A stretch of DNA of 64,000 nucleotides from Nevskia sp. (GCA_035651715.1 DASRFD010000150.1:128860-192859); one strand, 5' to 3'. Counted from the stretch's first letter, positions 11,867 through 52,027 are shown. The notes: a model not told the origin generated them from the sequence alone. Program-made: numbers and translations.

Positions 11867-12133
11867 GTCTCCTCCGCTCCGGCCGCTGTTGTCATGGACG
11901 CGCCTGCCGGCACGGCGAATCACCGCTGCGGGCGTCGTCGGGATTAATGTAACCGCTGCATGGGCGGCCGGCTTTTTAGGCCCCCAGTGTCGGCCCTGCC
12001 GGGGCGCACCACAAGCACCTTCCCGGGGTTTCCGACCCTGCCCGGGGTGGTCCACTACTGGCGCGCGATCAGGCCGGGCGCGCCGCCGACGTCCTCGTCT
12101 TGCCGGTCACGGCCGGCAACCCGGGCCTGCGGC

Positions 12134-17228: not shown

Positions 17229-17350
17229 GTGTGGGCCAAGTGCTCTTTCCGGCCACGCTAGCAAGGGAGCCGCTGAGGGACCAATGATGCAGATCAAGCG
17301 GCAAGGGCCGGCGTCCGGGAATTTCGCGGCGCCGGGAGTGTCCAAGCTTG

Positions 17351-17370
17351 GCAATATCCAATAATATCCA
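17351..17370 (+). promoter_or_regulatory. Direct repeat AATATCCA-N2-AATATCCA in divergent promoter region
   Basis: gcAATATCCAatAATATCCAga lies between the B12-binding gene start (17228, minus) and the CheB/CheR-HK start (17429, plus). Candidate operator. Confidence 0.25.
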
Positions 17371-17428
17371 GACCTTACGCACTCCAATCCCCGGCCCGTC
17401 ATTATCCAGGGCGAGAAAGCGATGGCTA

Positions 17429-20400: not shown

Positions 20401-21076
20401 GGTCAGCGACACGGGCATCGGCATCGGCGCGGAGGAACTGCCGCGCGTCTTCGACCGCTTCATGCAGGCCGACATTTCCAAGGCGCGCAAGTACGGCGGC
20501 ATGGGGCTGGGGCTGTCGATCGTGCGCAGCCTGGTCGAGGCCCACGGCGGCAGTGTGGCGGCATCGAGCGAGGGGCCCGGCAAGGGGGCGCGCTTCCTGG
20601 TGCGGCTGCCGCTGTCGCCCGGCATGCACATCGACAACGGGCCTCCCGCCGGCCCCGGCGCGCCGGCGGCGCTTTCGCTGAAGGGCGTCCGCCTGCTCGT
20701 CGTCGACGACGAGCCGGTCGGGCGGGAGGCGATCACCCAGGTGCTGCTGGCGCTCGGAGCCGAGGTGCAGGCGGCGGGCAGCGGAATAGAGGCGCTGGAC
20801 CTGCTCGAGCGCGAGCGCTTCGACGCGCTGATCTCGGACGTTGCCATGCCCGAGATGACCGGGTACGAGCTGATGCAGACCATCCGCAAGAACGAGGGGG
20901 CACGTGCGGCGCCCGGAATTTACGCCGTGGCGCTGACCGGCTTTGCCTCGATCGGCGAACGCGACGAGGCGCTGGCGGCGGGATTCGACGCCCACTTCGC
21001 CAAGCCGCCGAACATCGAGGAAATCGCGGCGCGAATCGCCGCGGCCGCCGCGGCGAGGGCCTTGCGGTCGTCCTGA
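17429..21076 (+). CDS. Hybrid chemotaxis methylesterase/methyltransferase sensor kinase: CheB-like + CheR-like + PAS + coiled coil + HisKA/HATPase + receiver
   Basis: Domain order read from motifs. CheB LNIAVLGASAGGVEAL. CheR GFFRDPEFV...VPACSTGEEAYSIALLL. Heptad-rich EELQSSNEELQ region. HisKA HELRSPLNVI. HATPase DTGIGIGAEELPRVFDRF and GGMGLGLSIV. REC LLVVDDEPV...DVAMPEMTG. Confidence 0.85.
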   Translation: MADQDNEESKPIDCLNIAVLGASAGGVEALSTVVAHLPDEPAFAAVVLMHLAADQESQLPEILAKQARWPVEPIAGGTPLQHGRIYVLTPGTVASVRDRRLLTMPRAEGLSRPIDEFMTAAADEEEVRAAAVVLSGMGSDGVAGAREIKAGGGRVIAQEPRSALHGGMPEAVIAEQLADEVLAPEAVGPALLRYFQSRSERSEVNDAHVEEALAQIKRGLGVNLGYYKAVNVRRRLARRAFLQAGGDLGAYMQRLEDDREELKALRDDLLIGVTGFFRDPEFVGALEQHVLPELLQGSQEIRIWVPACSTGEEAYSIALLLHHTLESAGLHRKMQVFGSDINDEAIRKARIGRYDAAAVASIPPMLRERYLVAEEGAWRIAKPVRETCVFATHNLFVNAPFSNVDLVSARNLLIYVRKAAKRHAFEVFSYALRRNGKLLLAPSEAADPELFEDYQPQLSLYRRRQVTRPPLRGFIFGESAPTAVTERPEVAGPSLESVVDRLALARFEPPGFVVDTHGSVVQFRGDTAHLLQPTRGDAALSLAKLIHPDLQVDVRAALMEAVHSKLTVRRERLRFGDRLCTLEVVPVPSGGAERYFLVSVDDRGSTPPLPAPGSPDGRAEDLERYVRVLGDELEQTRAQLKQVVVDYDATGEELRTANEEVLSANEELQSSNEELQEAKRSLEGANADLGTLNQRLQERNEQLSALNDDLGNLIRGIPVPVLMLDRDRCVRYFTPAAAELLGLHESDLGRPLRIDPVFADGALDAPLDEALGELRPVQREIQDANGRWYALHVRAYQTSENRVEGAVCALQDIHGLKVSLEAANSARAEAERANAAKNDFLALVSHELRSPLNVIANWVQLLLILKKDQGADERERRGLDTIHRQCQNLARLIDELLDISRITSGRLVLDLRPVDLAAVVRATVEALEPGADSRKVRLTTAGLSDELRMAGDTRRLQQIVGNILGNALKFTPEGGKVEVSLARIGTVAELAVSDTGIGIGAEELPRVFDRFMQADISKARKYGGMGLGLSIVRSLVEAHGGSVAASSEGPGKGARFLVRLPLSPGMHIDNGPPAGPGAPAALSLKGVRLLVVDDEPVGREAITQVLLALGAEVQAAGSGIEALDLLERERFDALISDVAMPEMTGYELMQTIRKNEGARAAPGIYAVALTGFASIGERDEALAAGFDAHFAKPPNIEEIAARIAAAAAARALRSS

Positions 21077-36394: not shown

Positions 36395-37990
36395 ATGAGA
36401 CCGCGCATGGCTCAGGGCGCGTCGGCGATGCACACCGGGGACCAGGCGGCGCGGGCGCGCCAGCTGCGCGACTGGACCGCGTTCCTCGCCATCACCATCG
36501 GCAGCTTCATCGCCATCCTCGACATCCAGATCGTCGCCAGCTCGCTCAACGAGATCCGCGCCGGCCTGTCGGCCAGCGTCGACGAGATCCAGTGGGTGCA
36601 GACCTCGTACCTGATCGCCGAGATCATCGCCATCCCGCTGTCCGGCTACCTGGCGCCGATGCTGTCGACGCGGGTGTTCTACACCATTGCCGCGATCGGC
36701 TTCACCCTGTCCAGCCTGGCCTGCGGCTTCGCCTGGAGCCTGGGCTCGATGGTGGTGTTCCGCGTGCTGCAGGGCTTTCTCGGCGGCGGCCTGATCCCGG
36801 CCTCGTTCGCCACCATGTTCCTGCTGTTCCCCCGGGAGAAGGACCGCGAGCTGCCGCAGCTGCTCGGCGGCATGGCGACGATGCTGGCGCCGGCGATCGG
36901 CCCGACCTTCGGCGGCTGGATCACCGAATCGCTGTCCTGGCGCTGGCTGTTCCTGATCAATTTCGTGCCGGGCCTGGCCTGCGCCTTCATCGTCTGGTCC
37001 ACCCTGGACGTGGACCGGCCGAAGCGGCACCTGCTGAAGAACCTGGACCTGGTCGGGGTGCTGTTCATGGCGCTGTTCCTCGGCGCGCTTGAATACACGC
37101 TGGATGACGGCCCGCGCCACGACTGGTTCGACGACGACGCGGTGGCGGTGTGCGCGGTGCTGGCGGCGATCGGCGGCGGCGTGTTCCTGTGGCGCGGGCT
37201 GCGCTCGGAGCATCCGATCGTCGACCTGCGCGCCTTCCGCAACCGCAATTTCGCCGTGACCTGCCTGGTCTCGGCGGTGCTGGGCATGAGCATCTTCACC
37301 CTGATCTACCTGACGCCGTTGTTCCTCGGCCAGGTCAGCGGCTACAACCCGCAGCAGATCGGCGCGGTGATGATGGTGCAGGGCCTGGCGATGATCGTCG
37401 CCGCGCCGTTCGTGATGCGCGTGGCCAACGCGCTGGACCCGCGCGTTACCATCGCCATCGGCCTGGTGCTGGTGGCGGCCGGCTCCTGGGCCAACGCGCA
37501 GATGACCGCGGACTGGGGCTATGCCCAGTTCGTGCTGCCGCAGGCGCTGCGCGGCGCCGGCCTGATCTTCTCGTTCGTGCCGATGACCAACCTCGCGCTC
37601 GGCACCATGGAGCGGCACGAGCTGAACAACGCCAGCGCGCTGTACACGGTGACGCGCAACCTCGGCGGCGCCTTCGGCCTGGCGGTGGTGGCGACCCTGA
37701 TCAACCGGCGCACCTGGACCCACTGGCAGGCGCTGGCGGAGAGCACGCGGCTGTCGCGCCCGGCGGTGCGCGAAGCCCTCGACGGCATGAGCGCCGCGCT
37801 GCGCCCGGCGCTGGGCGGCGACAGCGCCGCGGGCGCGGTCGGCATGCTGGCGCAGCAGGCGGCGCGGCAGGCGGCCACCATGACCTACAGCGACATGTAC
37901 CTGCTGCTGTCGATCTCGACCCTGCTGTCGGTGTGCCTGGTGCCGCTGATCCGCAAGCCGGCGCAGCAGGTGGGCGGGATCGGGCACTAG
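36395..37990 (+). CDS. MFS transporter, DHA2/EmrB-like
   Basis: 531 aa, 14 predicted TMs, MFS signatures. Start ambiguous among ATGs at 36395, 36407 and 36428. Confidence 0.8.
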   Translation: MRPRMAQGASAMHTGDQAARARQLRDWTAFLAITIGSFIAILDIQIVASSLNEIRAGLSASVDEIQWVQTSYLIAEIIAIPLSGYLAPMLSTRVFYTIAAIGFTLSSLACGFAWSLGSMVVFRVLQGFLGGGLIPASFATMFLLFPREKDRELPQLLGGMATMLAPAIGPTFGGWITESLSWRWLFLINFVPGLACAFIVWSTLDVDRPKRHLLKNLDLVGVLFMALFLGALEYTLDDGPRHDWFDDDAVAVCAVLAAIGGGVFLWRGLRSEHPIVDLRAFRNRNFAVTCLVSAVLGMSIFTLIYLTPLFLGQVSGYNPQQIGAVMMVQGLAMIVAAPFVMRVANALDPRVTIAIGLVLVAAGSWANAQMTADWGYAQFVLPQALRGAGLIFSFVPMTNLALGTMERHELNNASALYTVTRNLGGAFGLAVVATLINRRTWTHWQALAESTRLSRPAVREALDGMSAALRPALGGDSAAGAVGMLAQQAARQAATMTYSDMYLLLSISTLLSVCLVPLIRKPAQQVGGIGH

Positions 37991-38082
37991 GCCCGTCCGC
38001 GGCGGGCGGGCCGCATGCCGCACGGCAAACCCGCAACCGCGCAAGGGATTCCCGCTTTGGCGGGAACGGCGGCGCGCCCAGG

Positions 38083-40233
38083 CTAGCCGGCGCGCGCCGT
38101 GATCACCGCGCTCAGCAGCTGTCCCCGGTCCGCGTTCGGCCCCGCCAGGATTTCCACCTCGCCCGGCTCGAACACCGGCTTGAGGTCCTGCCCCGGGAAG
38201 CGCAGCTCGCTCGCGGCGAAGGCCAGCTTCACCGTGCCGGACTGGCCCGGCTGCAGCGTGATCTTGCCGAAAGCACGCAGCTCCAGCAGCGGCCGCGTCA
38301 CGCTGGCCACCTTGTCGCGGCTGAACAGGAACACGGTTTCCTCGGCCGCGCGCGGGCCCTCGTTGACCAGGTCGACCTCGGCCTCGATGCGCCCGGATTC
38401 GTCCACCTGCTCCGGCGACACGCGCAGCGCGGTGTAGCGGTAGCCGCCGTAGCCGAGGCCGTGGCCGAAGGGATAGAGCGGCTCGTTGGGCACGTCGAGG
38501 TACTTGCTGGTGAAGTAGTCCTTGGCGTCGAACGGGCGGCCGCTGGGGCGCTGGCCGAAGTGGATCGGCGCCTGGCCGACGGCGCGCGGCCAGCTGATCG
38601 GCGTGCGGCCGCTGGGCGAAACGCGGCCGCGCAGCACGTCGGCGATGGCGTTGCCGGCCTCGGTGCCGGGGAACCAGGCGGCGATGACGGCGTCGGCCTG
38701 CTCGTCCAGCCAGGGAATGATCAGCGGCCGGCCGGAGAACAGGATCGCGATCACCGGCTTGTCCAGCTTGCGGGCGCGCTGCAGCACCGCCTCGGCCAGC
38801 GCACGCTGCTTCCCCGGCAGGCCCGGATGGGCGCGGCTGGCGGCCTCGCCGCTCATGGTCGCACCCTCGCCCAGGCACAGCACGACGGCGTCGACGTCTT
38901 CGCACAGCTCCAGGGCGGCGGCGATGCCCTCCTCGCCGTCGTCCTTGATGCCGACGCCGCGCGCGTGGCGCAGCTCGGTGTCGGGGAAGGCCTCGCGCAG
39001 CCCGGCCAGCACGCTGACATGCGGCTCGGTCTCGCCGGCGGCCCACCAGGGGCCGCGCATCTCGCTGCCGGCGTCGGCCAGCGGGCCGAGCACGGCGAGC
39101 CGGTGGATGGCGTCGCCGAAGGGCAGCAGGTCGGCCTCGTTCTTCAGCAGCACCAGGGAGCGCGCCGCGACCGAGCGGGCGAAGTCGCGGCGCGCCAGCA
39201 GCGCCGCCGGGGCCTCCGCCGCCGCGCCGCGGCGATAGGGGTCCTCGAACAGGCCCAGCGCCTCCTTCAGCCGCAGCACGCGGCGCACCGCGGTGTCGAT
39301 CTGCTCCATCCGCACCAGCCCGCGCTCCAGCGCGGCCGGCAGGCCCTTGCGGTAGGCGTTGGCCATCATGTCGATGTCGACGCCGGCATTGAGCGCCAGC
39401 GCCGCCGCCTCGGCCAGGTCGGCGGCGACGCCGTGGCGCAGCAGCTCGCCGATGGCGTTGTAGTCGGACACCAGCACGCCGTCGAAGCCGAGCTCGCCGC
39501 GGAGCACGTCGCGCAGCAGCGGCACGTGCGCCGTCATCGGCACGCCGGCGAGGTCGGTGAAGGCCGGCATGATGGTGGCGACGCCGGCGGCGACCGCGGC
39601 GGCGAACGGCGGCAGGTGCACCTCGCGCAGGGCGCGCTCGGAAATGTCGACCGAGGCGTACTCGCGGCCGGCGCTGACCGGGCCGTAGGCGACATAGTGC
39701 TTGGCGCAGGCGGCGAGCGCGTCGGCCGCGGCGAGATTGGAGCCCTGGAAACCGCGCACCTTGGCGCGCGCGACCAGGGTGCCGAGCCAGGGGTCCTCGC
39801 CCGGCCCTTCCGCGGTGCGGCCCCAGCGCAGGTCGCGCGAGACATCGAGCATCGGCGCGAAGGTCATGGCCAGGCCGTCGGCGCAGGCCTCGCGCGCCGC
39901 CTCGCGGGCGGTGCGTTCCCACACCTGCTCGTCGAACACCGCCATCTCGCCCAGCGGGATCGGGAACAGCATGCGATGGCCGTGGATGATGTCCAGGCCG
40001 ATCAGCAGGGGGATGCCCAGGCGCGACTGCTCCACCGCCAGCTTCTGCATCTCGTGCACCGGGCCGGCGCCGCACAGATTGAGCAGGTTGCCGACCGTGC
40101 CGTCCTTGATCGAGTCGGTGGAATCGCCGGCGATGACCGGGCCGGTCACGGCGTAGCCGGCCGCGGTCATGGTGAGCTGGCCGAGCTTTTCCGGCAGTGT
40201 CATCCCGCCCAGCAGGCGCTCGATCCGGCTCAT
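38083..40233 (-). CDS. Glycoside hydrolase family 3 (BglX-like beta-glucosidase)
   Basis: 716 aa. GH3 N-terminal catalytic domain (GFDGVLVSDYNAIGEL with the nucleophile Asp) and the GH3 C-terminal domain. Confidence 0.85.
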   Translation of the reverse strand: MSRIERLLGGMTLPEKLGQLTMTAAGYAVTGPVIAGDSTDSIKDGTVGNLLNLCGAGPVHEMQKLAVEQSRLGIPLLIGLDIIHGHRMLFPIPLGEMAVFDEQVWERTAREAAREACADGLAMTFAPMLDVSRDLRWGRTAEGPGEDPWLGTLVARAKVRGFQGSNLAAADALAACAKHYVAYGPVSAGREYASVDISERALREVHLPPFAAAVAAGVATIMPAFTDLAGVPMTAHVPLLRDVLRGELGFDGVLVSDYNAIGELLRHGVAADLAEAAALALNAGVDIDMMANAYRKGLPAALERGLVRMEQIDTAVRRVLRLKEALGLFEDPYRRGAAAEAPAALLARRDFARSVAARSLVLLKNEADLLPFGDAIHRLAVLGPLADAGSEMRGPWWAAGETEPHVSVLAGLREAFPDTELRHARGVGIKDDGEEGIAAALELCEDVDAVVLCLGEGATMSGEAASRAHPGLPGKQRALAEAVLQRARKLDKPVIAILFSGRPLIIPWLDEQADAVIAAWFPGTEAGNAIADVLRGRVSPSGRTPISWPRAVGQAPIHFGQRPSGRPFDAKDYFTSKYLDVPNEPLYPFGHGLGYGGYRYTALRVSPEQVDESGRIEAEVDLVNEGPRAAEETVFLFSRDKVASVTRPLLELRAFGKITLQPGQSGTVKLAFAASELRFPGQDLKPVFEPGEVEILAGPNADRGQLLSAVITARAG

Positions 40234-40343
40234 CGCATTTTTTCCCGAGGCTGTCCTTATGATAGGGAGGGCCGGAGAAAACCACAGCCTCCGGGTGTCA
40301 AACGGCCCGTGCGGTCCATAATCAGCAACACAAGGAGGTGCCC

Positions 40344-41663
40344 GTGCCCAAAGCAGACCAGAAATCGAAGCCCGGGTTCCGCAAGCCGGCCGGCGCCGCC
40401 AGGCTCAGCCCCAAGGCGCTGGCGGAGCTGCCCGACGAGGCGCTGATCGAGGCGATCCAGCGCCAGACCTTCCGCTTCTTCTGGGAGGCTTCGCACCCGC
40501 GCAGCGGCCTGGCCCCGGACCGCTGCAAGACCAGCGGCGCGACGCCGGACGACGGCGTCATGGCCATCGGCGGCACCGGCTTCGGCGCGATGGCGCTGAT
40601 CGTCGCGGCGGAGCGCGGCTGGATCACGCGCCGGCAGGCGGTGGAGCGCCTGGGCGCCACCCTGGACCTGCTCGGCCGCGCCACCTGCTACCACGGCGCC
40701 TATCCGCACTTCATCGACGGCCGCAGCGGCGCCACCATCCCCTTCGGCCGCAAGGACGACGGCGGCGACATCGTCGAGACGGCGCTGCTGTTCCAGGGCC
40801 TGCTCTGCGCGCGGCAGTACTTCGACCGCGACGATCCGGCCGAGCGGTCGATCCGCAGCCGCGTCGACTGGCTGTGGGGCGACGTCGAGTGGAACTGGTA
40901 CACGCAGGGCGGACGCAAGCTGCTGTACTGGCACTGGAGCCCGAACAACGGCTGGGCCATGGACCACGAGATCCACGGCTGGAACGAGTGCCTGATCGCA
41001 TACGTGCTGGCGGCGGCGGCGCCGCGCTATCCGGTCGAGCCGCTGGTCTACCACCGCGGCTACGCCACCGGCCACGACTTCATCAACGGCAAGCGCTACT
41101 ACGGCATCGAGCTGCCGCTGGGCCAGCCCTACGGCGGCCCGCTGTTCTTCGCCCACTACTCGTTCTGCGGCCTCGATCCGCGCGGCCTGAAGGACCGCTA
41201 CGCCGACTACTGGGAGCTGAACCTGCGCCACGTGCGCATCAACCACGCCCACTGCGTCGCCAACCCGCACGGCCACAAGGGCTACGGCCCCGACTGCTGG
41301 GGCCTCACCGCCAGCGACGAGAAGGGCGGCTACTCGGCGCACGCGCCGGACAACGACAACGGCACCATCTCGCCCACCGCCGCGCTGGCCAGCCTGCCCT
41401 ACGCGCCGCGCGAGGCGCTGGCGGCGGCGCGGCATTTCCTGCGCCGGCACGGCGCCAAGGTGTGGGGCCGCTACGGCTTCGTCGACGCCTTCAACGAGGG
41501 CCAGGACTGGTACGCCGACACCTACCTGGCCATCGACCAGGGGCCGATCGTGGTGATGATGGAGAATCACCGCAGCGGCCTGCTGTGGAAGCTGTTCATG
41601 AGCGTGCCCGAGGTCCAGCAGGGCCTGCGCCGCCTCGGCTTCTCCAGCCCCCACCTGCAATAG
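40344..41663 (+). CDS. DUF3131 / GH144-like (endo-beta-1,2-glucanase family) protein
   Basis: SD AAGGAGG 5 nt before the second GTG. The track ORF starts at the first GTG, 40338. Family assignment is by recall of the DUF3131/GH144 pattern, hence moderate confidence on function. Confidence 0.6.
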   Translation: MPKADQKSKPGFRKPAGAARLSPKALAELPDEALIEAIQRQTFRFFWEASHPRSGLAPDRCKTSGATPDDGVMAIGGTGFGAMALIVAAERGWITRRQAVERLGATLDLLGRATCYHGAYPHFIDGRSGATIPFGRKDDGGDIVETALLFQGLLCARQYFDRDDPAERSIRSRVDWLWGDVEWNWYTQGGRKLLYWHWSPNNGWAMDHEIHGWNECLIAYVLAAAAPRYPVEPLVYHRGYATGHDFINGKRYYGIELPLGQPYGGPLFFAHYSFCGLDPRGLKDRYADYWELNLRHVRINHAHCVANPHGHKGYGPDCWGLTASDEKGGYSAHAPDNDNGTISPTAALASLPYAPREALAAARHFLRRHGAKVWGRYGFVDAFNEGQDWYADTYLAIDQGPIVVMMENHRSGLLWKLFMSVPEVQQGLRRLGFSSPHLQ

Positions 41664-41672
41664 GACCGGCCC

Positions 41673-42995
41673 TTGAGCGAGACGCTGGAACAGTGGCTGG
41701 AGCGCGAGTACCGCCACGCGGCGCGGGCGATGCTGCGCAGCGTCTCGGCCGCCGGCATCGTCAAGCGCCGGCCCGGCTTCGGCACCGAGGTGCGCGCCGC
41801 GCCCGGCTCGGTCATCGCCTCGCCGGTGCTGGGCGCCTACGATCCCGATCCCGATTATTTCTTCCACTGGTTCCGCGACTCGGCGGTGGTGCTGGAGGCG
41901 CTGCGCCTGCTGTATCTCGACGGCACGGTCGACGCGGAGGCGCTGCGGCACCTGGGCGACTTCCTGCGCTTCAACCGCGCACTGGGCCGGCTCGACGGCC
42001 GCGAGCTGGTCGCCGACTCCGCCTGGCGGACGCGCGTCCGGCCCGATTTCGTCAAGTTCCTGCGCGAGGACGCCGAGCTGGCGCAGATTCACGGCGACCG
42101 CGTCGCCGGCGAGACGCGGGTCAACCCCGACGGCACGCTGGACATCTCGAAGTGGGCGCGGCCGCAGCACGACGGTCCGCCGCTGCGCGCGCTGGCGGTG
42201 CTGAACTGGATCAGCGCCGCGCCGCTGGACGTGGCGGCGGAGGACGACGCGGCGGCGCTGCTGCGCGCCGACCTGTCCTTCACCCGGCGGCACTGGCGCG
42301 AAGCCTCCTACGACATCTGGGAGGAGGAGAAGGGCCACCACTACTACACGCGGCGCGTCTCGGCCGCCGCGCTGGAGCAGGGCGCGGCCTGGCTGGAGAC
42401 CCATGGCGACTCGCAGCAGGCGCAGGCCTGCCGGGACGAGGCGCAGGCGATCCTGCGCGAACTCGACGGCTGGTGGCTGGACGACGCCGGGCACTACCGC
42501 TCGCGCGTGGTGGAGGACGGCGCGCGCTCGGCCAAGGAGCTGGACATCGCCATCATCCTTGCGGCGATCCACGCCGGCGAGGCCGGCGGCGCGCACTCGG
42601 TGCACGACCCGCGCATGCAGGCGACGCTGGACCGGCTGGAGCAGCTGTTCGACTCGCTCTACGCCATCAACCGCGGGCGGCCGGCGCACCGCTCGCCGGC
42701 GATGGGCCGCTACCGCGGCGACGTCTACTATTCCGGCGGCGCCTATTACTTCTCCACGCTCGGCGCGGCCGAGTTCTGCTTCCTCGCCGCGGCCGGCGCG
42801 GGCGACGCGCGGGCCTGGATCGCGCGCGGCGACGGCTACCTGGAGACGGTGCGGGCCTACACGCCGGCGGACGGCGAGCTGGCCGAGCAGTTCGACCAGA
42901 ACGACGGCCACCCGTCCTCGGCGCGGCAGCTGGCCTGGAGCTATGCCGCGTTCATCTCCTGCGTCACCGCGCGCCGGCGCGCGCTGGGCAACTAG
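41673..42995 (+). CDS. Glycoside hydrolase family 15 (glucoamylase/glucodextranase-like)
   Basis: TTG start 10 nt after the upstream stop. GH15 signature DYFFHWFRDSAVVLEAL and the (alpha/alpha)6-barrel pattern. Confidence 0.75.
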   Translation: MSETLEQWLEREYRHAARAMLRSVSAAGIVKRRPGFGTEVRAAPGSVIASPVLGAYDPDPDYFFHWFRDSAVVLEALRLLYLDGTVDAEALRHLGDFLRFNRALGRLDGRELVADSAWRTRVRPDFVKFLREDAELAQIHGDRVAGETRVNPDGTLDISKWARPQHDGPPLRALAVLNWISAAPLDVAAEDDAAALLRADLSFTRRHWREASYDIWEEEKGHHYYTRRVSAAALEQGAAWLETHGDSQQAQACRDEAQAILRELDGWWLDDAGHYRSRVVEDGARSAKELDIAIILAAIHAGEAGGAHSVHDPRMQATLDRLEQLFDSLYAINRGRPAHRSPAMGRYRGDVYYSGGAYYFSTLGAAEFCFLAAAGAGDARAWIARGDGYLETVRAYTPADGELAEQFDQNDGHPSSARQLAWSYAAFISCVTARRRALGN

Positions 42996-43004
42996 GCGGC
43001 GGCC

Positions 43005-44792
43005 GTGAGCGACTCCTCCGCGCAGCACAGCCCGCCGCTGGAGGAGGCCCCGCATCCCGGCCTGGGCCTGCAGCTCGGCCTGGTGCTCGGCGCGCTGCGC
43101 GGCTCGGCGGTGCGCCGCACCCTGCTCAGCCTGGTCGTCGCCATCGTGCTGGTGCTGGTGCTCACCGCCTACGCCCAGATCCGCCTCAACAGCTGGAACA
43201 AGCCGTTCTTCGACGCCCTGTCGCGGCGCGACCTGCGCGACTTCTTCTTCCAGCTAGGCGTGTTCGCCATCATCATCAGCGGCCTGCTGATCCTCAACGT
43301 GGCGCAGCGCTACCTGGTGGAAACCCTGAAGTGGCGCCTGCGCGAGGGCCTGGTGCAGGACCTGGTGGCGCGCTGGATGCAGCCGCGCCGCGCCTTCTGG
43401 CTGGCGCACCGAGGCTCGATGGGCGTCAACCCCGACCAGCGCATGCACGAGGACGCGCGCAAGCTGTGCGAGCTGTCGGCCGACCTCGGCGTCGGCCTGT
43501 CGCAGTCCTCGATCCTGTTCGTGACCTTCGCCGGCGTGCTGTGGGTGCTGTCGGAGGACTTCAGCCTGCACATCGGCGGCGAGGACTACCCCGTGCCCGG
43601 CTTCATGCTGTGGGCGGCGATCCTCTACGCCGGCGGCGGCTCGCTCCTCAGCTACCTGGTCGGCCGCACGCTGATCAACCGCAACGCCGAGCGCTACGCC
43701 CGCGAGGCCGACCTGCGCTTCTCGCTGGTGCGCATCAACGAGCACCTCGACGGCATCTCGCTGGCCGGCGGCGAAGCCGACGAGCGCCGCCGCGTCGAGC
43801 AGGACCTGGGCGACGTGCTGGCGGCGACGCGGCGCCTGGTCACCGGCCTGACCAACCTCACCTGGATCACCGCCGGGTTCGGCTGGGTCACGGTGGCGGC
43901 GCCGATCCTGGTGGCGGCGCCGCTGTTCTTCGCCGGCAAGATCACCTTCGGCGGCGTGATGATGGCGGCGGCGGCCTTCACCCAGGCGCAGTCCTCGCTG
44001 CGCTGGTTCGTCGACAACTTCAGCATCATCGCCGACTGGCGCGCGACCCTGCTGCGCGTCGCCGGCTTCCGGCAGGCCCTGGTCGCCGACAACGCCGAGC
44101 GCGGCGGCGCCAGCCACATCGGCTACGCCGAAGGGCCGGCTGGCGAGCTGCTGATCGAGGACCTGGTGGTGGACTCGCCCGGCGGCCGCGACGCGCTGAG
44201 CGAGCGGCAGGTGCGGGTGCGCGCCGGCGAGCGCCTGCTGGTGGCGGCGGCGCCGGGCACCGGCAAGACCCAGCTGTTCCGCGCCCTGGCCGGCCTGTGG
44301 CCCTGGGGCTCGGGGCGCGTGACCATGCCGGCCGGCGAGGCGGTGCACTACATGCCGCGCGGCACGCCCTACCTGCCGCGCGGCTCGCTGCGCGAAGTGC
44401 TGGCCTACCCGCTCGACGCCGCCGGCTTCAGCGACGAAGCCTGCGCCCGCGCCCTGGCGCGGCTGGGGCTGGAGCGCCTGCAGCCCCTGCTCGACGCGCG
44501 CCAGCGCTGGGACCGCGAGCTGAGCCAGGACGAGCAGCAGGGCCTGGCCTTCGCCCGCCTGGCACTGCAGGCGCCGCCGTGGGTGCTGATCGACGACGCT
44601 TTCGGCGCGCTCGACGCCGAGCTGATGACGCGCATCGCCTCGGTGCTGCAGCAGGAGCTGGCGCACACCGGGCTGATCCACATCGGCCGCGCCGCCGAGG
44701 GACAGGAGCAGCTGTTCGGCCGCGTGCTGCACCTGGTCAAGGCGGGGGCGGACGGGGCGCCGCCCCGGCAGGATGCGGGTGCCGCGCCATGA
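43005..44792 (+). CDS. ABC transporter, fused permease-ATPase half-transporter of the ABCD/YddA (ABC_membrane_2, SbmA/BacA-like) type
   Basis: GTG start 10 nt after the GH15 stop. NPDQRMHED loop motif typical of ABCD-type TMDs. Walker A APGTGKTQLF. ABC signature and Walker B LIDDAFGALD. Confidence 0.8.
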   Translation: MSDSSAQHSPPLEEAPHPGLGLQLGLVLGALRGSAVRRTLLSLVVAIVLVLVLTAYAQIRLNSWNKPFFDALSRRDLRDFFFQLGVFAIIISGLLILNVAQRYLVETLKWRLREGLVQDLVARWMQPRRAFWLAHRGSMGVNPDQRMHEDARKLCELSADLGVGLSQSSILFVTFAGVLWVLSEDFSLHIGGEDYPVPGFMLWAAILYAGGGSLLSYLVGRTLINRNAERYAREADLRFSLVRINEHLDGISLAGGEADERRRVEQDLGDVLAATRRLVTGLTNLTWITAGFGWVTVAAPILVAAPLFFAGKITFGGVMMAAAAFTQAQSSLRWFVDNFSIIADWRATLLRVAGFRQALVADNAERGGASHIGYAEGPAGELLIEDLVVDSPGGRDALSERQVRVRAGERLLVAAAPGTGKTQLFRALAGLWPWGSGRVTMPAGEAVHYMPRGTPYLPRGSLREVLAYPLDAAGFSDEACARALARLGLERLQPLLDARQRWDRELSQDEQQGLAFARLALQAPPWVLIDDAFGALDAELMTRIASVLQQELAHTGLIHIGRAAEGQEQLFGRVLHLVKAGADGAPPRQDAGAAP

Positions 44793-47029
44793 TCCGGACC
44801 GCACTGCTGCACTTGCTGCTGTTGCTGGCGCTGGCGCCGGCGGCGGTCCGCGCCGACAGCTTCGAGTTCCATCCGCCCGCCAGCGCCGACGATCCGGGCG
44901 TGCCGGCGCTGATCCGCGACCTGGCCGAGCGCATGCTGCCGGTGTACCAGGATGCCGATACCGAGCGTTACCTCGCCAACCTGTCGGCGCTGCAGATGGC
45001 GGACAGCAACTACGCCGCCGCCGACGACGCGCGGCAGTCGCTGCGCGAGCGCCAGCAGAAGTCCGGCAAGGCTGCGGACCAGCGCCAGCCGCCGGGCCGC
45101 GCCGTCGCGCTGGACCTCTATGTCCATGCCCGCACCCTCGCCGCGGCCGGCGCCGCGCCGCTCGACCAAGCCTTCGCCCAGGCCTTCCGCGAGGCCGCGC
45201 CCAGGCTCGGCGACCGCGAGGCCTACGCCGCCGGCGCCTGGCTGACCGAGCCGCCGGAGGCGGGCCGCGACGCGCTGCAGGTGGCCTTCGACCGCAGCCG
45301 CGCCGCCGGCGTGCTGGACCAGGACCAGGCGCTGGAGCTGGTGTGGACCTGGCTGGCACTGGACGCGCGGCGCAGCGTCGGCGCGGCGGCGGCGAAGCTG
45401 GTCGAGGAGGACGGCCGGCGGCGCTATGCCGGCGGCGACGAGGTGGTGCTGCGCGGCGCAGGCGGCGGCGAGATCCACATCCGCGTGCTGCTGCCCCGGG
45501 CTGGCGCCGAGCGGCGCGCCGCCCTGCTGCAGTACGCGCTGGACCCGCCGCTGGACGATGCGCGCGCCTGCGCCGCGCGCGGTTACGCCGGCGTGCTGGC
45601 CTACAGCCGCCTGCGCGGCGGCCACGGCGCGCCGCGGCCGTTCCTGCACGAGGGCGAGGACGTGCGCGCGGTGATCCGCTGGATCGCCCGCCAGCCGTGG
45701 AGCGACGGCAGGGTGGGCCTGTACGGCGACGGCTACGGCGGCTTCGCCGCCTGGGCCGCGGCGAAGCAGGCGCCCGCCGCGCTCAAGGCCATCGCCGCCG
45801 CCGACCCGATGGCGCCGGGCATCGACTTCCCGGCGCCCGGCCGCATTTTCCGCAACGACGCCTACGCCTGGGCGCTGGCGGCGCAGTCCGCCGACGGCGG
45901 CAGCGGCCGCGACGCGGCGGCCTGGCAGGCGCTGGATCGCAAGTGGTACCGCAGCGGCGCGCCCTACCGCGACTACGACCGCATGGCCGGCGCCCACAAC
46001 CACGCCTTCCAGGAGTGGCTGGCGCACCCGAGCTACGACCGCTGGTGGCAGAAGCTCATCCCCTACGGCAAGCAGTTCGCCCGCATCGACGTGCCGGTGC
46101 TGAGCATCGGCGGCTACTACGCCGGCGGCCAGGCCGGCGCGCTGTACTACTTCGGCGAGCACCTGCGCTACAAGCCCGACGCGGACCACAACCTGCTGCT
46201 GGGGCCCTGGGCGCAGGACGCCGCTCGCGGCGGCCCGCCGCCGATCCTGCGCGGCTACACCCTGGACCCGGCGGCGCTGCCGGACCTGCGCGAGCTGCGC
46301 CTGCGCTGGTTCGACCACGTGTTCCGCAACGGCCCGCTGCCGCCGCCGTTGAACGACCGGGTCAGCTACGAGCTGATGGGCGCCGACGAGTGGCGCCACG
46401 CCGCTTCATTGCAGAGCGGCGCGCTGCGCTTTTACCTCGACCCCGCCGGCGGCGAGCGCCACCGCCTCAGCGCGGCGGTCCCGCCGGACTCCGCCTACAC
46501 CAGCCTGGTGGTCAACCTCGCCGACCGCCGCGACGCCGACCCGCCGCCGCGCGGCAATCTCGCCGGCCGCATTCCGCCGCCGCGCGACGGCCTGGCCTTC
46601 GCCAGCGAGCCGCTGGCGCAGCCGCTGGAACTGGGCGGGAGCCTGGGCGGCCAGCTCGACTTCATGCTCAACCGCCAGGATGTGGACCTGAGCCTGACGC
46701 TCTACGAGCAGCTCGCCGACGGCAGCGGCCTGCAGCTCGCCGCGCCCTGCGAATTCCGCGGCAGCTATGCCGGCGATCGCAGCCAGCGCCACATGCTGCT
46801 CGCCGGCGTGCGCCAGCAGCTGCCGTTCCGCTGCGAGCAGTGGCTGGGACGGCGGGTCCAGGCCGGCAGCCGCCTGGTGCTGCACCTCGAAGTGCTGAAG
46901 CGGCCGGACCGGCAGATCAACTACGGCGGCGGCGGCGAAGTCAGCGGCGAGGCGCTGGAATACGTGCTGCACCACATCAAGCTGCGCTGGTACGGCGGCA
47001 GCTATATCGAACTGCCGGTGCGGAGGTAG
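44789..47029 (+). CDS. CocE/NonD-family (S15 X-Pro dipeptidyl-peptidase-like) alpha/beta hydrolase homolog, secreted; nucleophile Ser apparently replaced by Gly
   Basis: ATGA overlap with the ABC stop. Signal peptide MIRTALLHLLLLLALAPAAVRA. Nucleophile-elbow region RVGLYGDGYGGFAAW aligns to CocE AVGMFGVSYLGVTQW, placing G at the Ser position. Embedded in the long shadow ORF 40874..47029. Confidence 0.7.
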   Translation: MIRTALLHLLLLLALAPAAVRADSFEFHPPASADDPGVPALIRDLAERMLPVYQDADTERYLANLSALQMADSNYAAADDARQSLRERQQKSGKAADQRQPPGRAVALDLYVHARTLAAAGAAPLDQAFAQAFREAAPRLGDREAYAAGAWLTEPPEAGRDALQVAFDRSRAAGVLDQDQALELVWTWLALDARRSVGAAAAKLVEEDGRRRYAGGDEVVLRGAGGGEIHIRVLLPRAGAERRAALLQYALDPPLDDARACAARGYAGVLAYSRLRGGHGAPRPFLHEGEDVRAVIRWIARQPWSDGRVGLYGDGYGGFAAWAAAKQAPAALKAIAAADPMAPGIDFPAPGRIFRNDAYAWALAAQSADGGSGRDAAAWQALDRKWYRSGAPYRDYDRMAGAHNHAFQEWLAHPSYDRWWQKLIPYGKQFARIDVPVLSIGGYYAGGQAGALYYFGEHLRYKPDADHNLLLGPWAQDAARGGPPPILRGYTLDPAALPDLRELRLRWFDHVFRNGPLPPPLNDRVSYELMGADEWRHAASLQSGALRFYLDPAGGERHRLSAAVPPDSAYTSLVVNLADRRDADPPPRGNLAGRIPPPRDGLAFASEPLAQPLELGGSLGGQLDFMLNRQDVDLSLTLYEQLADGSGLQLAAPCEFRGSYAGDRSQRHMLLAGVRQQLPFRCEQWLGRRVQAGSRLVLHLEVLKRPDRQINYGGGGEVSGEALEYVLHHIKLRWYGGSYIELPVRR

Positions 47030-47040
47030 CGTCCTGGCGC

Positions 47041-47068
47041 GTCATCCCTGGCGGCGCGCAGGGATGAC
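47041..47068. terminator. Bidirectional terminator-like hairpin GTCATCCCTG-N8-CAGGGATGAC
   Basis: 10-bp perfect stem between the convergent 47029 (plus) and 47105 (minus) gene ends. Confidence 0.5.
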
Positions 47069-47104
47069 ACGTGACGAAAAGGATCCGGCGCCGCGGCAAG
47101 GCGC

Positions 47105-48895
47105 TCAGCCCCCCGCCGGCGCCTGCTGCACCCGGTATACCGGATACAGATCCAGCCGCTCGTCCCACGACGGCGAGCGGCGGTAGAAGAAGTCGAGCCG
47201 CGCCTGCGGGTCCTGGGCGAACTTCTCGTCGCCGTCGAGCTTGTCGCGGAACTCCCGCGCCAGCGCCGGATCGCCGGCCAGCATCTGCTGCGCCACCTGC
47301 TCGGCGACGTAGGGTTCCATGTACTCCTTCTGCTCGAAAGCGCGGTTGAAGAAGCCCCAGGCGGCGAAGGAATCCGAGGCCAGCGGCTCGAACAGCGCCA
47401 GCACCAGGCGCGCCTCGGGCTGGGCCAGCGGCACGTAGAGCGAGCCGGGCGGCACCTCGCGCGTCTCGGCCTTCCATTCGCCCTTGAGCTCCGGCATGGT
47501 GCGGCCTTCGAACGGCGGCTTGGACAGGTCGGCCGCGGTGGCGCGGAAGGTCTCCACCTGGAGCCTGCCCGGCGGCGTGTCGAGCCGGCGGAAGCCGATG
47601 CCGTGCAGGGCCAGCTTCTGGCCGATCTCCGCGGCCCAGGCCGCCGGCACGATGTAGCCGGCCTTGGGCGCGCGCACCACCAGGCTCGGCTTGACCGTGT
47701 CCTTCAGCGGCACGCGCCAGACTTCGGGCTTGCCCGTGTCGTAGCGCGTGACCAGGCCGCCGGAAACGGCGGAGGGTTCGCGCACATAGGCGTAGCCCAG
47801 GAAGTCGATGGTGCGCACGTGCTCGCCCGAGGCGAAGTTCAGCGGCACCTGCTCGCCGCCGAGCCGGGCCGCGCGTTCGTCGGCGCGCTGCGCCGTGCGC
47901 ATCCACGCCGGGCCGCTCGTGGCGACCTGCTCGGCCAGCGCGACGATGGTGTTGCGGGTGGTGCGCACGCGCGTGGCGTAATCCTTCCAGGAGTGCGTCT
48001 CCACCAGCATGCCGAGCCGGTTGCGCAGGCCCCAGTAGCCGTGCGAGAAGCGCGGCGGCACCACCTGCACCTCGAAGCCGGAGGCCGGATCGTCGGTGCG
48101 CGCGAAGCTCGGATAGAAGTCCAGCGGCAGCGAGCCGGCGGCGGTGAGCCGCCTGATGGTCTCCTTCTGCATCGCCGCCGCGGCCTCGCGCAGGCCGCTG
48201 TCGCCGTCGTACAGCGGCTCCACCGTGAGCGAGACGTCGTGGCGGAAGTTGGCGCCGTCGGTCACGTGCAGGTCGGCGTAGACGATCGGGTCCCACTGGT
48301 CGAGCAGGCGCAGCATCGCCTGCATCTCCGGCGCGTCGGCCTTGGTGTAGTCGCGGTTGAGGTTGAGGTTCTGCGCGGTGGTGCGCCAGCCCATCTCCTC
48401 CGGCCCGACCTGGTTGGGCCGGTTCCAATGGCCGAAGCGCTCGTGGCCGTCGACGTTGAACACCGGCACGAACACGACCACTTCCTTGTCCAGCGCCTTC
48501 GGCGCCGCCGTGCCTTGCAGCATCTCGCGCAGCGCGAGGAAGCCGGCGTCCTTGCCGTCGATCTCGCCGGCGTGGATGCCGCCCTGCACCAGGAACACCG
48601 GCAGCCCGCGCTGGCGCGCCACCTCGGGGGTGAGCGCGCCGCTGCGGCTGACGCTCAGCGCCAGCATCGGCCGGCCTTCCGGCGAGCGGCCGAATTCGAA
48701 GCAGCGCACCGCCTCGGGCCAGGCCTGCTGGTAGGCCTGGCACAGGCGCTCGACCTCGGCGTAGCGGCCGGTCTGGCGGTAGCCGGTCTGCTCGGCCAGG
48801 GTGGCGAGGGCAGCGGGCGGCGCGTCGGCCTGGGCCAGGACGGAGCATGCAAGCAGCAGGCCCGGCAGATACCGGGCGAAACGGGCATGGGTCAT
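47105..48895 (-). CDS. M14-family zinc metallocarboxypeptidase, secreted
   Basis: 596 aa. Signal peptide. M14 motifs GGIHAGE (HxxE zinc site), NLNRDY and HSW. Confidence 0.85.
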   Translation of the reverse strand: MTHARFARYLPGLLLACSVLAQADAPPAALATLAEQTGYRQTGRYAEVERLCQAYQQAWPEAVRCFEFGRSPEGRPMLALSVSRSGALTPEVARQRGLPVFLVQGGIHAGEIDGKDAGFLALREMLQGTAAPKALDKEVVVFVPVFNVDGHERFGHWNRPNQVGPEEMGWRTTAQNLNLNRDYTKADAPEMQAMLRLLDQWDPIVYADLHVTDGANFRHDVSLTVEPLYDGDSGLREAAAAMQKETIRRLTAAGSLPLDFYPSFARTDDPASGFEVQVVPPRFSHGYWGLRNRLGMLVETHSWKDYATRVRTTRNTIVALAEQVATSGPAWMRTAQRADERAARLGGEQVPLNFASGEHVRTIDFLGYAYVREPSAVSGGLVTRYDTGKPEVWRVPLKDTVKPSLVVRAPKAGYIVPAAWAAEIGQKLALHGIGFRRLDTPPGRLQVETFRATAADLSKPPFEGRTMPELKGEWKAETREVPPGSLYVPLAQPEARLVLALFEPLASDSFAAWGFFNRAFEQKEYMEPYVAEQVAQQMLAGDPALAREFRDKLDGDEKFAQDPQARLDFFYRRSPSWDERLDLYPVYRVQQAPAGG

Positions 48896-49789: not shown

Positions 49790-51043
49790 GTGACCTCGAG
49801 CCATCCGGAGGTGCCGCCGGCCGTGGTGGCCGCCGATCTGCGCGCGCGCTACCGCCAGGTGCGGGCGCAGACCGAGGCCTTGGCCGAGCCGCTGTCGGCG
49901 GAGGACCAGGTGCTGCAGTCGATGCCGGACGCCAGCCCCGCCAAGTGGCACCGCGCCCATACCAGCTGGTTCTTCGAAACCTTCCTGCTGCAGCCGCAGC
50001 TGGCCGGCTACAAGCCGTTCCACCCGGGCTACGGCTACCTGTTCAATTCCTATTACGAGGCGATCGGCGAGCGCGTGGCGCGGCCGCGCCGCGGCATGCT
50101 CAGCCGGCCGTCCTGCGACGAGATCGCGGCTTACCGCGCGCATGTCGACCAGGCGATGCTGCAATTGCTGGAGCGCGGCACGCCCGCCGTGCAGGCCCTG
50201 GTCGAGCTGGGCCTGAACCACGAGCAGCAGCACCAGGAGCTGCTGCTCACCGACATCAAGCACGCCTTTTCCGGCAATCCGCTGCGGCCGGCCTACGCCG
50301 CCGCGCCGGAAGCCGGGCCGGGCGCCGCGCCGCCGCTGCGCTGGCACGACATCCCGCGCGGCATCCATGCGGTCGGCCACCGCGGCACCGGCTTTCATTT
50401 CGACAACGAGGGCCCGGCGCACGAAGTGCTGTTGTCCGGCTGCCGCATCGCCAGCCGCCCGGTGAGCGTCGGCGAATACCTGGAGTTCGTCGCCGACGGC
50501 GGCTACCGCCGCGCCGGGCTATGGCTGTCCGACGGCTGGGCGAAGGTGTGCGAGGAAGGCTGGAACGCGCCGCTGTACTGGGAGCGCACCGGCCACGACT
50601 GGACCTGCTACACCCTGCACGGCCCGCGTCCGCTGTGCGCCGACGAGCCGGTGTGCCACGTCAGCTACTACGAGGCCTGCGCCTACGCCGCCTGGGCCGG
50701 CAAGCGCCTGCCGACCGAGCAGGAATGGGAAGTGGCGGCGCGGCAGGCCGGCGGCGATTTCACCTCCGCCGCGGCGGTGCGCCCGCATCCGGGCGCGCTG
50801 CGCGAAGGCTTCACTCAGGAGGTGTGGGAGTGGACCGGCAGCGCCTACCTGCCCTATCCCGGCTTCCGCCCCGCCGCCGGCGCGGTGGGCGAGTACAACG
50901 GCAAGTTCATGGTCAACCAGATGGTGCTGCGCGGCCGCTCCTGCGCCACGCCGCCGGGGCACTCGCGGCCCAGCTACCGCAATTTCTTCGGGCCGGCCGC
51001 GCGCTGGCAGTTCAGCGGGTTCCGGCTCGCGGAGGACGCATAA
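49790..51043 (+). CDS. egtB: Ergothioneine biosynthesis protein EgtB (hercynine oxygenase; DinB_2 + FGE-sulfatase fold)
   Basis: GTG start. N-terminal DinB-like region ([11 protein letters not shown]). C-terminal FGE-like region ([14 protein letters not shown]). Directly followed by egtD. Confidence 0.85.
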
Positions 51044-52027
51044 ATGGTCTCGGCACTCCCGCTGCAAGGCGTGCAGCACCTGCACGATCTCGAACCCACC
51101 CGCGGCGAGTTCGAGCAGGCGGTGTTCGCCGGCCTGGCGCAGCCGCGCAAGAGCCTGCCCTGCAAGTTCTTCTACGACGCCGCCGGCTCGGCGCTGTTCG
51201 ACCGCATCTGCGAGCTGCCGGAGTACTACCCGACCCGCACCGAGCTGGGCATCCTGCGCCGGCGCGCCGGCGAGATGGCGGCCCTGCTCGGCGCGGGCGC
51301 CGGCGTGGTCGAGTTCGGCTCCGGCTCGGCCGCCAAGGTCGGCCTGATCCTGGAGCAGCTGGAACAGCCCAGCCTGTACGTGCCGGTGGACATCTCGCGC
51401 GGCCACCTGCTGGCCGGCGCCGCGGCGCTGGCCCGCGCCTTCCCCGGCCTGCGCGTGGCGCCGGTGTGCGCCGACTACACCCAGGCGTTCGAGCTGCCGG
51501 CGGCGGCGCGCACGCTGCCGGGACGGCTGGCGGGCTTCTTCCCCGGCTCCACCATCGGCAACTTCACCCCGGGCGAGGCGCGCCGCTTCCTGGCCCAGAC
51601 CCGCCGCACGCTCGGCCGCGGCGCGGTGATGATCGTCGGCGTGGACCTGCGCAAGGACGCCGCCGTCCTGGAGGCCGCCTACGACGACGCGGCCGGCGTC
51701 ACCGCCGCCTTCAACCTCAACCTGCTCCAGCGCATCAACCGCGAGCTGGGCGGCAGCTTCGATCTCTCCGCCTTCCGCCATTGCGCGCGCTGGAACGCCG
51801 CCGAAAGCCGCGTCGAGATGCACCTGCTGAGCCGCCGCGCGCAGCGCGTGCGCATCGGCGCGCGGCACTTCGACTTCGCCGAGGGCGAGAGCATCCACAC
51901 CGAGAATTCGTACAAGTACACGCCGGAGGGCTTCCGCATGCTGGCCAGCGCCGCCGGCTACGAGCCGCTGGAGTGCTGGACCGATCCGCACCAGCTGTTC
52001 AGCGTGCACGCGCTGCAGGCGCGCTGA
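51044..52027 (+). CDS. egtD: L-histidine N-alpha-methyltransferase EgtD
   Basis: ATG abuts the egtB TAA. PCKFFYDAAGSALFDRICELPEYYPTRTE and VEFGSGSAAK are characteristic of EgtD. Confidence 0.85.
   Translation: MVSALPLQGVQHLHDLEPTRGEFEQAVFAGLAQPRKSLPCKFFYDAAGSALFDRICELPEYYPTRTELGILRRRAGEMAALLGAGAGVVEFGSGSAAKVGLILEQLEQPSLYVPVDISRGHLLAGAAALARAFPGLRVAPVCADYTQAFELPAAARTLPGRLAGFFPGSTIGNFTPGEARRFLAQTRRTLGRGAVMIVGVDLRKDAAVLEAAYDDAAGVTAAFNLNLLQRINRELGGSFDLSAFRHCARWNAAESRVEMHLLSRRAQRVRIGARHFDFAEGESIHTENSYKYTPEGFRMLASAAGYEPLECWTDPHQLFSVHALQAR

Follow-up and report, generated by a model that had tools for sequence, protein, structure and literature searches.

Beta-1,2-glucans, either cyclic or osmoregulated and periplasmic, are factors of virulence, symbiosis and osmoadaptation. 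Very little is understood of their turnover, and we are aware of no pathway in any bacterium that recycles periplasmic glucans of the osmoregulated or cyclic kind. The closest described gene clusters are lin1838-1841 of Listeria innocua, the Cpin_6279 region of Chitinophaga pinensis and the BT_3567 locus of Bacteroides, which have a glycoside hydrolase (GH) of family 144 and a BglX-type GH3 beta-glucosidase with a preference for beta-1,2-oligosaccharides in common with the locus reported here. The latter lies in a 64,000-nucleotide stretch of DNA from Nevskia sp. (GCA_035651715.1 DASRFD010000150.1:128860-192859), called the window below and numbered from its first letter, and consists of a four-gene operon for a GH144 beta-1,2-glucanase homologue, a GH15 enzyme, an ATP-binding cassette (ABC) half-transporter and a secreted protein of the CocE/NonD fold (genes 1 to 4), divergent from a GH3 gene. 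We propose, putting the full mechanism at slightly less than an even chance, that the operon serves the cytoplasmic catabolism or salvage of beta-1,2-glucan.

In the Listeria cluster, the final breakdown is cytoplasmic, as is predicted here; CpSGL, the founding endo-beta-1,2-glucanase of the family (Cpin_6279), is itself secreted. Known beta-1,2-glucan clusters rely on a binding-protein-dependent ABC importer and often encode a GH94 phosphorylase (PMC11842490), whereas neither a solute-binding-protein-dependent ABC importer nor a GH94 phosphorylase was found in the window. The present locus differs by a half-transporter of the YddA/Rv1819c type, by a glucanase predicted to be cytoplasmic and by the addition of a GH15 enzyme and of a putative pseudo-hydrolase of the CocE fold. 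Another point of comparison is the locus for synthesis and export of cyclic beta-1,2-glucan, cgs-cgt (chvB-chvA, ndvB-ndvA), where an ABC half-transporter gene lies downstream of Cgs, an order also observed in Panacagrimonas. However, Cgt/ChvA, an MsbA-like exporter, belongs to a different ABC family, no Cgs was found among the large ORFs (open reading frames) of the window, and three hydrolases of predicted cytoplasmic location accompany the transporter. Finally, in the protease-associated import systems yddA-yddB-pqqL of E. coli and Fus of Pectobacterium, reportedly described by Grinter et al. in 2019, the gene of a YddA-type ABC protein is accompanied by that of a periplasmic member of a peptidase family. 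In contrast to these, our locus has no conserved TonB-dependent receptor, the partner of its transporter has another fold and is probably catalytically dead, and its neighbours are glycosidases.

The literature found on beta-1,2-glucan clusters mentions no GH15, YddA-type transporter or CocE-like protein. An earlier sequence-only reading of this DNA had not recognised the arrangement as a described system, and indeed no such cluster appeared in the literature searched. The core of glucanase and glucosidase is familiar; the new elements around it are the type of transporter, its pseudo-hydrolase partner and GH15. More mining of such clusters has been called for in a 2025 review (PMC11842490).

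Products of the five genes

The window matches a metagenome contig (ENA ERZ27279688), and an ABC protein identical to that of gene 3 is attributed at NCBI to a metagenome-assembled genome of a Nevskia sp. Gene calls relied on the GC content of third codon positions (GC3), since the window, at about 70% G+C, is rich in long spurious ORFs. All five genes present a GC3 of 0.93-0.97, which confirmed the calls, and an ORF at 44773-47067 that overlaps gene 4 was rejected on this ground (GC3 of 0.52, against 0.95 in the frame 44789-47029). On the plus strand, the operon starts with the GH144 gene (40344-41663, 439 aa), whose GTG at 40344 is located six bases past an AAGGAGG Shine-Dalgarno sequence, with an alternative GTG at 40338; it continues with the GH15 gene (41673-42995, 440 aa, TTG start), the ABC gene (43005-44792, 595 aa) and gene 4 (44789-47029, 746 aa). 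The GH3 gene (38083-40233, 716 aa) is divergently transcribed from the minus strand. The tightly coupled operon divergent from GH3 that had been proposed is thus borne out by the GC3 calls and by the junctions, including the ATGA overlap between the ABC gene and gene 4; the gaps between GH144 and GH15 and between GH15 and the ABC gene measure 9 nt each rather than 10 nt, and position 40234, previously given as the start, is only the first base of the divergent intergenic region.

Gene 1 was compared directly with CpSGL. It matches PF10091 with 259 bits and aligns to CpSGL (5gzh) over residues 29-438 with an E-value of 2.2e-147 in phmmer, at 53% identity over 409 aligned residues; the match to 4gl3 is stronger still (E 9.3e-167), and the exo enzyme BDI_3064 (5z06, E 4e-126) is somewhat less close than the endo enzyme 5gzh. 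All of D135, D139, E142, E211, F268 and Y330 of CpSGL are kept in the alignment, within the motifs KDDGGDIVET, WNEC, GGPLFF and GGYSAH. In CpSGL, E211 is the general acid, E142, D139 and D135 are candidates for the base, and F268 and Y330 are clan residues (PMC12102758). By sequence, gene 1 thus qualifies as a genuine GH144 enzyme, as had been proposed, but the DUF3131 label given to it did not hold: that domain is not among the hits, and PF10091 takes its place. Every GH144 enzyme characterised so far has as its substrate beta-1,2-glucan or the derived oligosaccharides with a degree of polymerisation (DP) of 3-5 or more (PMC11842490).

In Pfam, the divergent gene exceeds by a wide margin the cut-offs of the GH3 N, GH3 C and Fn3-like domains, but it scores 633.3 bits against the NCBIfam BglX equivalog NF011678, below the cut-off of 666, and is thus best called a BglX-like GH3 beta-glucosidase rather than a strict BglX equivalog. 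Among solved structures, its nearest relatives include BT_3567 (5xxl, E 2.8e-171) and Lin1840 (4zoa, E 1.8e-142), both characterised as beta-1,2-glucooligosaccharide glucosidases, and this nearness upholds the link to beta-1,2-glucan suggested earlier. On the strength of these homologies, beta-1,2-glucan is probably the substrate of both GH144 and GH3.

Gene 2 consists of a GH15 catalytic domain only, scoring 179 bits against PF00723 (cut-off 22), with fungal glucoamylases as best solved relatives (2vn4, E 3e-45). Six motifs (WFRDSA, WxRPQxDGPxLR, DIWEE, GRYxxDxYY, (A/S)EQFD and LAWSYA) are invariant across 44 GH15 homologues, and so are the whole -1 subsite and both catalytic glutamates, located in DIWEE and (A/S)EQFD, which we take to correspond to E179 and E400 in the numbering of A. 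niger. Such invariance suggests an active enzyme under purifying selection, and gene 2 is predicted to be an exo-alpha-glucosidase of the fungal glucoamylase type. It shares catalytic and -1 subsite residues with the enzymes of A. niger and T. reesei, its best matches, but differs from them in being bacterial, presumably cytoplasmic, devoid of a starch-binding domain and genetically tied to a beta-1,2-glucanase. Unlike bacterial GH15 enzymes, it has no N-terminal beta-sandwich; the Caulobacter glucoamylase, an ordinary two-domain secreted bacterial enzyme, was discarded as a model. The former description of gene 2 as "glucoamylase-like" falls short, as a more specific job is plausible, namely the removal of alpha-1,6-linked glucose left by GH144 and GH3.

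None of the three hydrolases harbors a signal peptide, either in the window or among homologues. For GH3, no start codon lies upstream of the ATG and homologues start right at the conserved domain, unlike periplasmic BglX, which has a signal peptide; for GH144, neither an upstream start codon nor a hydrophobic N-terminus was found. With no signal peptide and no upstream start to supply one, breakdown by GH144, GH15 and GH3 is predicted to take place in the cytoplasm.

Gene 3 associates an ABC_membrane_2 / SbmA-BacA-like transmembrane domain (TMD) with a nucleotide-binding domain (NBD) in a single permease-ATPase chain (PF06472, 113.8 bits against a cut-off of 24.4; PF05992, 73 bits; PF00005, only 33 bits), which identifies it by sequence as a half-transporter of the YddA/BclA/Rv1819c family. 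Its best solved relative is Rv1819c, the mycobacterial BacA (6tqe, E 1.4e-53), ahead of eukaryotic ABCD proteins. The NPDQR motif at residues 142-146 is invariant in 84 homologues. The sequence-only reading of an ABCD/YddA-type fused protein with NPDQR was thus right for fusion and motif, although the affinity is closer to Rv1819c/BacA than to eukaryotic ABCD. Fusion layout and NPDQR are common to gene 3 and Rv1819c; the known cargos of the Rv1819c/YddA/BclA family are cobalamin, bleomycin and peptides, a glycan cargo not being known. A recent paper (2026) places such proteins in a YddA/BclA clade from which the proton-driven SbmA is derived, and describes YddA as "of unknown function" (PMC13316013).

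The ATPase domain (residues 415-562 of gene 3) departs from the canonical motifs, as it does in the 84 homologues. Walker A is kept, with its Lys in 76 of these, but the Q-loop Gln is missing, the region reading PRGTPY, and the signature is LSQDEQ, not LSGGQ. The residue following the Walker B Asp, at position 531, is D in 46 homologues, G in 32 and E in three. In the alignment with Rv1819c the H-loop is ambiguous and H559 is conserved; the deposited Rv1819c chain (6tqe) has a Gly at the position aligned to the catalytic Glu, presumably the E576G substitution used to stop hydrolysis. As a homodimer, the transporter would possess two degenerate ATP sites, and this clade may bind ATP without normal hydrolysis or depend on the proton gradient, as SbmA does. 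The lack of the catalytic Glu, the LSQDEQ signature and a constant secreted partner separate the clade from Rv1819c, YddA and BclA.

Gene 4 scores 117.4 bits against TIGR00976 (cut-off 66.3) and also matches PF02129. Its signal peptide is followed by an all-helical N-terminal domain (about residues 25-212), then by the alpha/beta-hydrolase domain and, at the C-terminus, by a beta-sandwich, and its AlphaFold 2 model (pLDDT, the predicted local distance difference test, of 73.7; pTM, the predicted template modelling score, of 0.70) has CocE, the cocaine esterase, as top Foldseek match (E 4.8e-24). The fold and domain order are those of CocE/NonD proteins (S15; cocaine esterase, alpha-amino acid ester hydrolase), but the helical domain is an addition and S117, D259 and H287 of CocE are aligned to G315, A445 and Q476. 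Of the 69 locus homologues, none has the catalytic His and only 12 have the Ser; the Sec signal peptide is always present. A search of 1.8 billion cluster representatives revealed that the triad is missing from the roughly 25 closest clusters (at least 42% identity) but intact, with GxSxG, D and H, farther out in the family, in 82 of 117 more remote representatives of similar length (about 750 aa), which suggests that the ABC-linked clade is a pseudoenzyme offshoot. Gene 4 is thus probably non-catalytic, so that of the "secreted S15-like hydrolase" proposed before, secretion and fold stand and the hydrolase does not.

Two relatives of gene 4 may be mentioned here. At locus L088 (5230-8280), a triad-intact protein of 759 aa (39% identity) follows a carbohydrate esterase family 4 (CE4) polysaccharide deacetylase gene by 4 nt, with no ABC gene nearby, a hint that acylated polysaccharides may be the substrates of the active parent family. 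At L089, on a 140-kb contig, a single ORF of 1369 aa (8001-12110, plus strand; protein P0369) fuses the ABC protein and the gene 4 homologue, the former signal peptide being placed as a linking transmembrane helix; this is a single contig and could be an assembly error.

Gene orders in related genomes

A scan restricted to one genome per species yielded 583 relatives of the ABC protein, and the locus counts given here refer to the best 80, nearly all from metagenome-assembled genomes of Steroidobacteraceae/Nevskiales, with the cultured Hydrocarboniphaga daqingensis (CGMCC 1.7049, L037) in addition. The five-gene set occurs in 43 loci with proteins only 60-75% identical: 26 have the order of the window, with GH3 divergent from GH144-GH15-ABC-gene 4, and 17 have GH3 divergent from ABC-GH144-GH15-gene 4, the glycosidase pair having moved as a unit. 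This recurrence argues that the arrangement is beyond chance. Among the others, 19 loci have ABC-gene 4 immediately preceded by the gene of a protein of about 990 aa, 14 have ABC-gene 4 alone and four show other or incomplete arrangements. No conserved gene lies upstream of the ABC gene in the 14 bare loci, where upstream genes are heterogeneous. A gene 4 homologue goes with the ABC gene in all 75 loci where it would be visible, and this pair is the invariant core. Overlaps of 4 nt are kept at junctions in the relatives. In a neighbour-joining tree, the ABC proteins group for the most part according to gene order, which indicates an ancient and retained linkage rather than one repeatedly reinvented; with gene orders so largely clade-specific, the case for independent origins of the linkage was judged weak and abandoned.

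Several variants of these orders were observed. In L028 and L034, two ABC paralogues flank GH144-GH15 (ABC-GH144-GH15-ABC-gene 4), an arrangement that resembles a transitional form of the two main orders or may reflect a heterodimer. In L043, L052, L054 and L067, all of the rearranged order, a CocE-like gene only 37-40% identical lies on the opposite strand and may be a different paralogue; in L043, L054 and L067, a type-B carboxylesterase (COesterase) gene comes next. Three loci (L049, L054 and L071) harbor a GH94 1,2-beta-oligoglucan phosphorylase gene 4-7 kb from the cluster; in L049 (18321-21707, minus strand), it encodes a 1128-aa protein with SOGP_N and SOGP_2nd domains and lies downstream of the cluster, OmpA-like and caspase-domain genes standing between. 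In Panacagrimonas, a gene for a 2859-aa Cgs precedes the four genes, all five sharing one strand in the manner of chvB-chvA, with a gap of 262 nt from Cgs to GH144.

The protein of about 990 aa belongs to a sister clade. It is encoded on the same strand before ABC-gene 4, has no signal peptide and carries an F5/8 type C (discoidin) domain; it is found at about 6900-9950 on the plus strand in L027, L038, L045, L047, L050, L053, L055, L057, L063, L065, L070, L074, L077 and L085, and at 4753-7680 in L009. Its C-terminal region gives weak matches to six-hairpin glycosidase families (GDE_C in 11 of 14, best E 1.8e-4; GH15 in seven of 14; rhamnosidase in four of 14) and no solved relative of that region was found. 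It may represent an undescribed glycoside hydrolase family.

A proposed salvage route and its alternatives

In the proposed route, substrate, transport direction, role of gene 4 and linkage specificity of GH15 would be as follows, each being inferred. Periplasmic beta-1,2-glucan would be captured, most likely the cyclic or osmoregulated glucan of the organism itself or of a neighbour, especially of the alpha-1,6-cyclized type. The YddA/Rv1819c-type transporter would carry it across the inner membrane, with secreted gene 4 as its periplasmic partner, either a receptor or an accessory protein and not an esterase. GH144 would then open and cut the glucan, GH3 would trim beta-1,2-linked glucose from non-reducing ends, and GH15 would take off the one alpha-(1,6)-linked glucose standing in the way of GH3, leaving all of the glucan as glucose. 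The Nakajima laboratory found that CpSGL (a GH144 enzyme, like gene 1) and BtBGL (a GH3 enzyme) together convert alpha-1,6-cyclized beta-1,2-glucans to glucose and a linear pentaose that holds the alpha-1,6 bond and cannot be degraded, and that synthases of such glucans are widespread in Proteobacteria. An alpha-acting enzyme is thus needed. GH3 would stall once the non-reducing end is an alpha-linked glucose, and an exo-alpha-glucosidase would free it. We give even chances to the view that GH15 acts on alpha-linked glucose of the substrate shared by GH144 and GH3, and somewhat less to the import of the glucan by the ABC protein. The narrowest version, in which periplasmic alpha-1,6-cyclized beta-1,2-glucans are salvaged by a YddA-type transporter, which would be the first glycan carrier of its family, a dead CocE/NonD receptor and a GH15 of new alpha-1,6 specificity, appears doubtful as a whole.

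Import is favoured by the proximity of the ABC protein to Rv1819c/BacA, which brings large hydrophilic cargo into the cell, and by the match of its TMD to the SbmA/BacA importers. The sister clade, in which a discoidin and six-hairpin glycosidase-like protein takes the place of the GH genes upstream of ABC-gene 4, also fits the proposed route, as do the GH94 phosphorylase genes near three loci, the retention of all five genes in 43 loci, with GH144-GH15 between ABC and gene 4 in 17 of them, and the fused ORF of L089. As the cluster has no outer-membrane transporter, a glucan of the organism's own periplasm, and thus salvage, is favoured. The uptake and degradation that had been suggested gain in coherence, since GH144, GH15 and GH3 lack signal peptides, and nothing came to support the suggestions of laminarin or of a glycoconjugate.

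Several observations nevertheless weigh against this route. The absence of an outer-membrane transporter leaves the uptake of a foreign glucan (2-5 kDa) unexplained, and Pfam searches on the large ORFs of the 64 kb detected no glucan synthase gene (cgs, opgGH or opgD). Fungal-type GH15 enzymes prefer alpha-1,4 bonds, and glucans of the Cgs type contain no alpha bond, yet GH15 is retained beside Cgs. ABC and gene 4 occur without GH144, GH15 and GH3 in 33 of the 80 loci (about 40%), and the agreement of gene orders with the ABC phylogeny implies few independent events. Cgs adjoins the cluster only in Panacagrimonas, an association that fits a role in export equally well. The transporter has no catalytic Glu after Walker B, and cargo of ABCD1-3 is moved out of the cytosol. 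For mycobacterial BacA, transport in both directions has been reported (PMC10960864).

These last points bear on a biosynthetic alternative, in which the ABC protein would stand in for Cgt/ChvA/NdvA without being its orthologue and export cyclic beta-1,2-glucan made in the cytoplasm, gene 4 would receive or chaperone the glucan in the periplasm, and GH144, GH15 and GH3 would clear aborted or linear chains. The position of the four Panacagrimonas genes behind Cgs, the type IV fold of both transporter types and the directions reported for BacA/Rv1819c and ABCD1-3 agree with it, but the 262-nt gap after Cgs leaves room for separate control, the neighbour in 43 loci is a GH3 beta-glucosidase and not a synthase, and the sister clade pairs its ABC protein with another glycosidase-like protein and no synthase. 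A complete hydrolytic set, with a phosphorylase nearby in three loci, points rather to catabolism, and the TMD resembles the importers SbmA and BacA, so that we consider export rather unlikely.

Alternatively, two unrelated modules could share one transcript: ABC and gene 4 would import a peptide or another hydrophilic cargo, after the model of BacA, of BclA or of YddA with the periplasmic protease PqqL, and the glycosidases would degrade beta-1,2-oligosaccharides entering otherwise. The pair, as the invariant core, does occur by itself in 14 loci, relatives of the ABC protein import peptides and cobalamin, the YddA family is "of unknown function" (PMC13316013), and gene 4 descends from a peptidase/esterase family. 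However, it cannot be a serine peptidase; moreover, GH144-GH15 are inserted between ABC and gene 4 in 17 loci with 4-nt overlaps in the relatives, a glycosidase-like gene adjoins the pair in 66 of 80 loci, and no other sugar transporter is conserved nearby, the gene of the major facilitator superfamily (MFS) beside GH3 not being conserved. Such a coincidence of modules is unlikely. Lastly, the substrate could be some other compound of glucose, such as a glycolipid, a sophoroside or a decorated glucan, in which alpha bonds occur along with beta-1,2 bonds and whose non-sugar part gene 4 would recognise. The descent of gene 4 from ester/amide hydrolases, the triad-intact relative beside a CE4 deacetylase and the retention of GH15 beside Cgs, a synthase of glucans free of alpha bonds, would suit such a compound, but characterised GH144 enzymes are confined to beta-1,2-glucan and its oligosaccharides, and no lipid- or acyl-handling gene is conserved in the cluster, which makes it very unlikely.

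Control signals, neighbouring genes and significance

The divergent intergenic region (110 nt, 40234-40343) contains a promoter-like site directed toward the operon, with a -35 GTGTCA at 40295-40300 and a -10 CATAAT at 40317-40322, which is the sole sigma-70-like match in 37900-47300 (9.4 kb), 0.2 being expected from shuffled sequences. An 11-nt inverted repeat (CCCGAGGCTGT at 40244-40254 and ACAGCCTCCGG at 40284-40294, 29 nt apart) lies in the same region and could be an operator; both features are consensus matches only. No regulator gene adjoins the repeat. The intergenic region is 96% identical (mean column identity) to that of a sister species (L006). At the other end, a GC-rich 10-bp hairpin at 47041-47068, between the end of gene 4 and a convergent M14 peptidase gene, is possibly a bidirectional terminator, on weak evidence: it has no T-run and was not called in a terminator scan, and the fold of 47025-47110 (-40.2 kcal/mol) is not statistically unusual, with a z-score of only -1.25. 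A search of 36-49 kb of the window against Rfam returned no structured RNA.

The MFS gene at 36395-37990, convergent with GH3, was dismissed as a member of the system, as it is not conserved in other loci. Downstream, the convergent M14 gene (47105-48895, minus strand) encodes a carboxypeptidase, and a DUF2944 gene is also near; after these two comes an egtB-egtD-like pair (49790-52027, plus strand; DinB_2 and FGE-sulfatase, then Methyltransf_33), which would suggest ergothioneine synthesis. Farther away, a 1262-aa protein (17288-21076, plus strand) fuses CheB methylesterase, CheR methyltransferase, PAS, histidine kinase and receiver domains, and two adjacent ORFs of 639 aa each (8267-12106, minus strand) encode, for one, a sulfatase and, for the other, a protein without Pfam match at E <= 1e-5.

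The locus raises an annotation problem, since gene 4 and some 1500 public relatives are named "CocE/NonD family hydrolase" although the clade has lost the triad. GH15 is a concrete candidate for the enzyme missing from the breakdown of alpha-1,6-cyclized glucans. The operon would also offer an example of a pseudoenzyme serving as the partner of a transporter and, if the proposed route is true, it would provide the first physiological function for a branch of the YddA transporter family.

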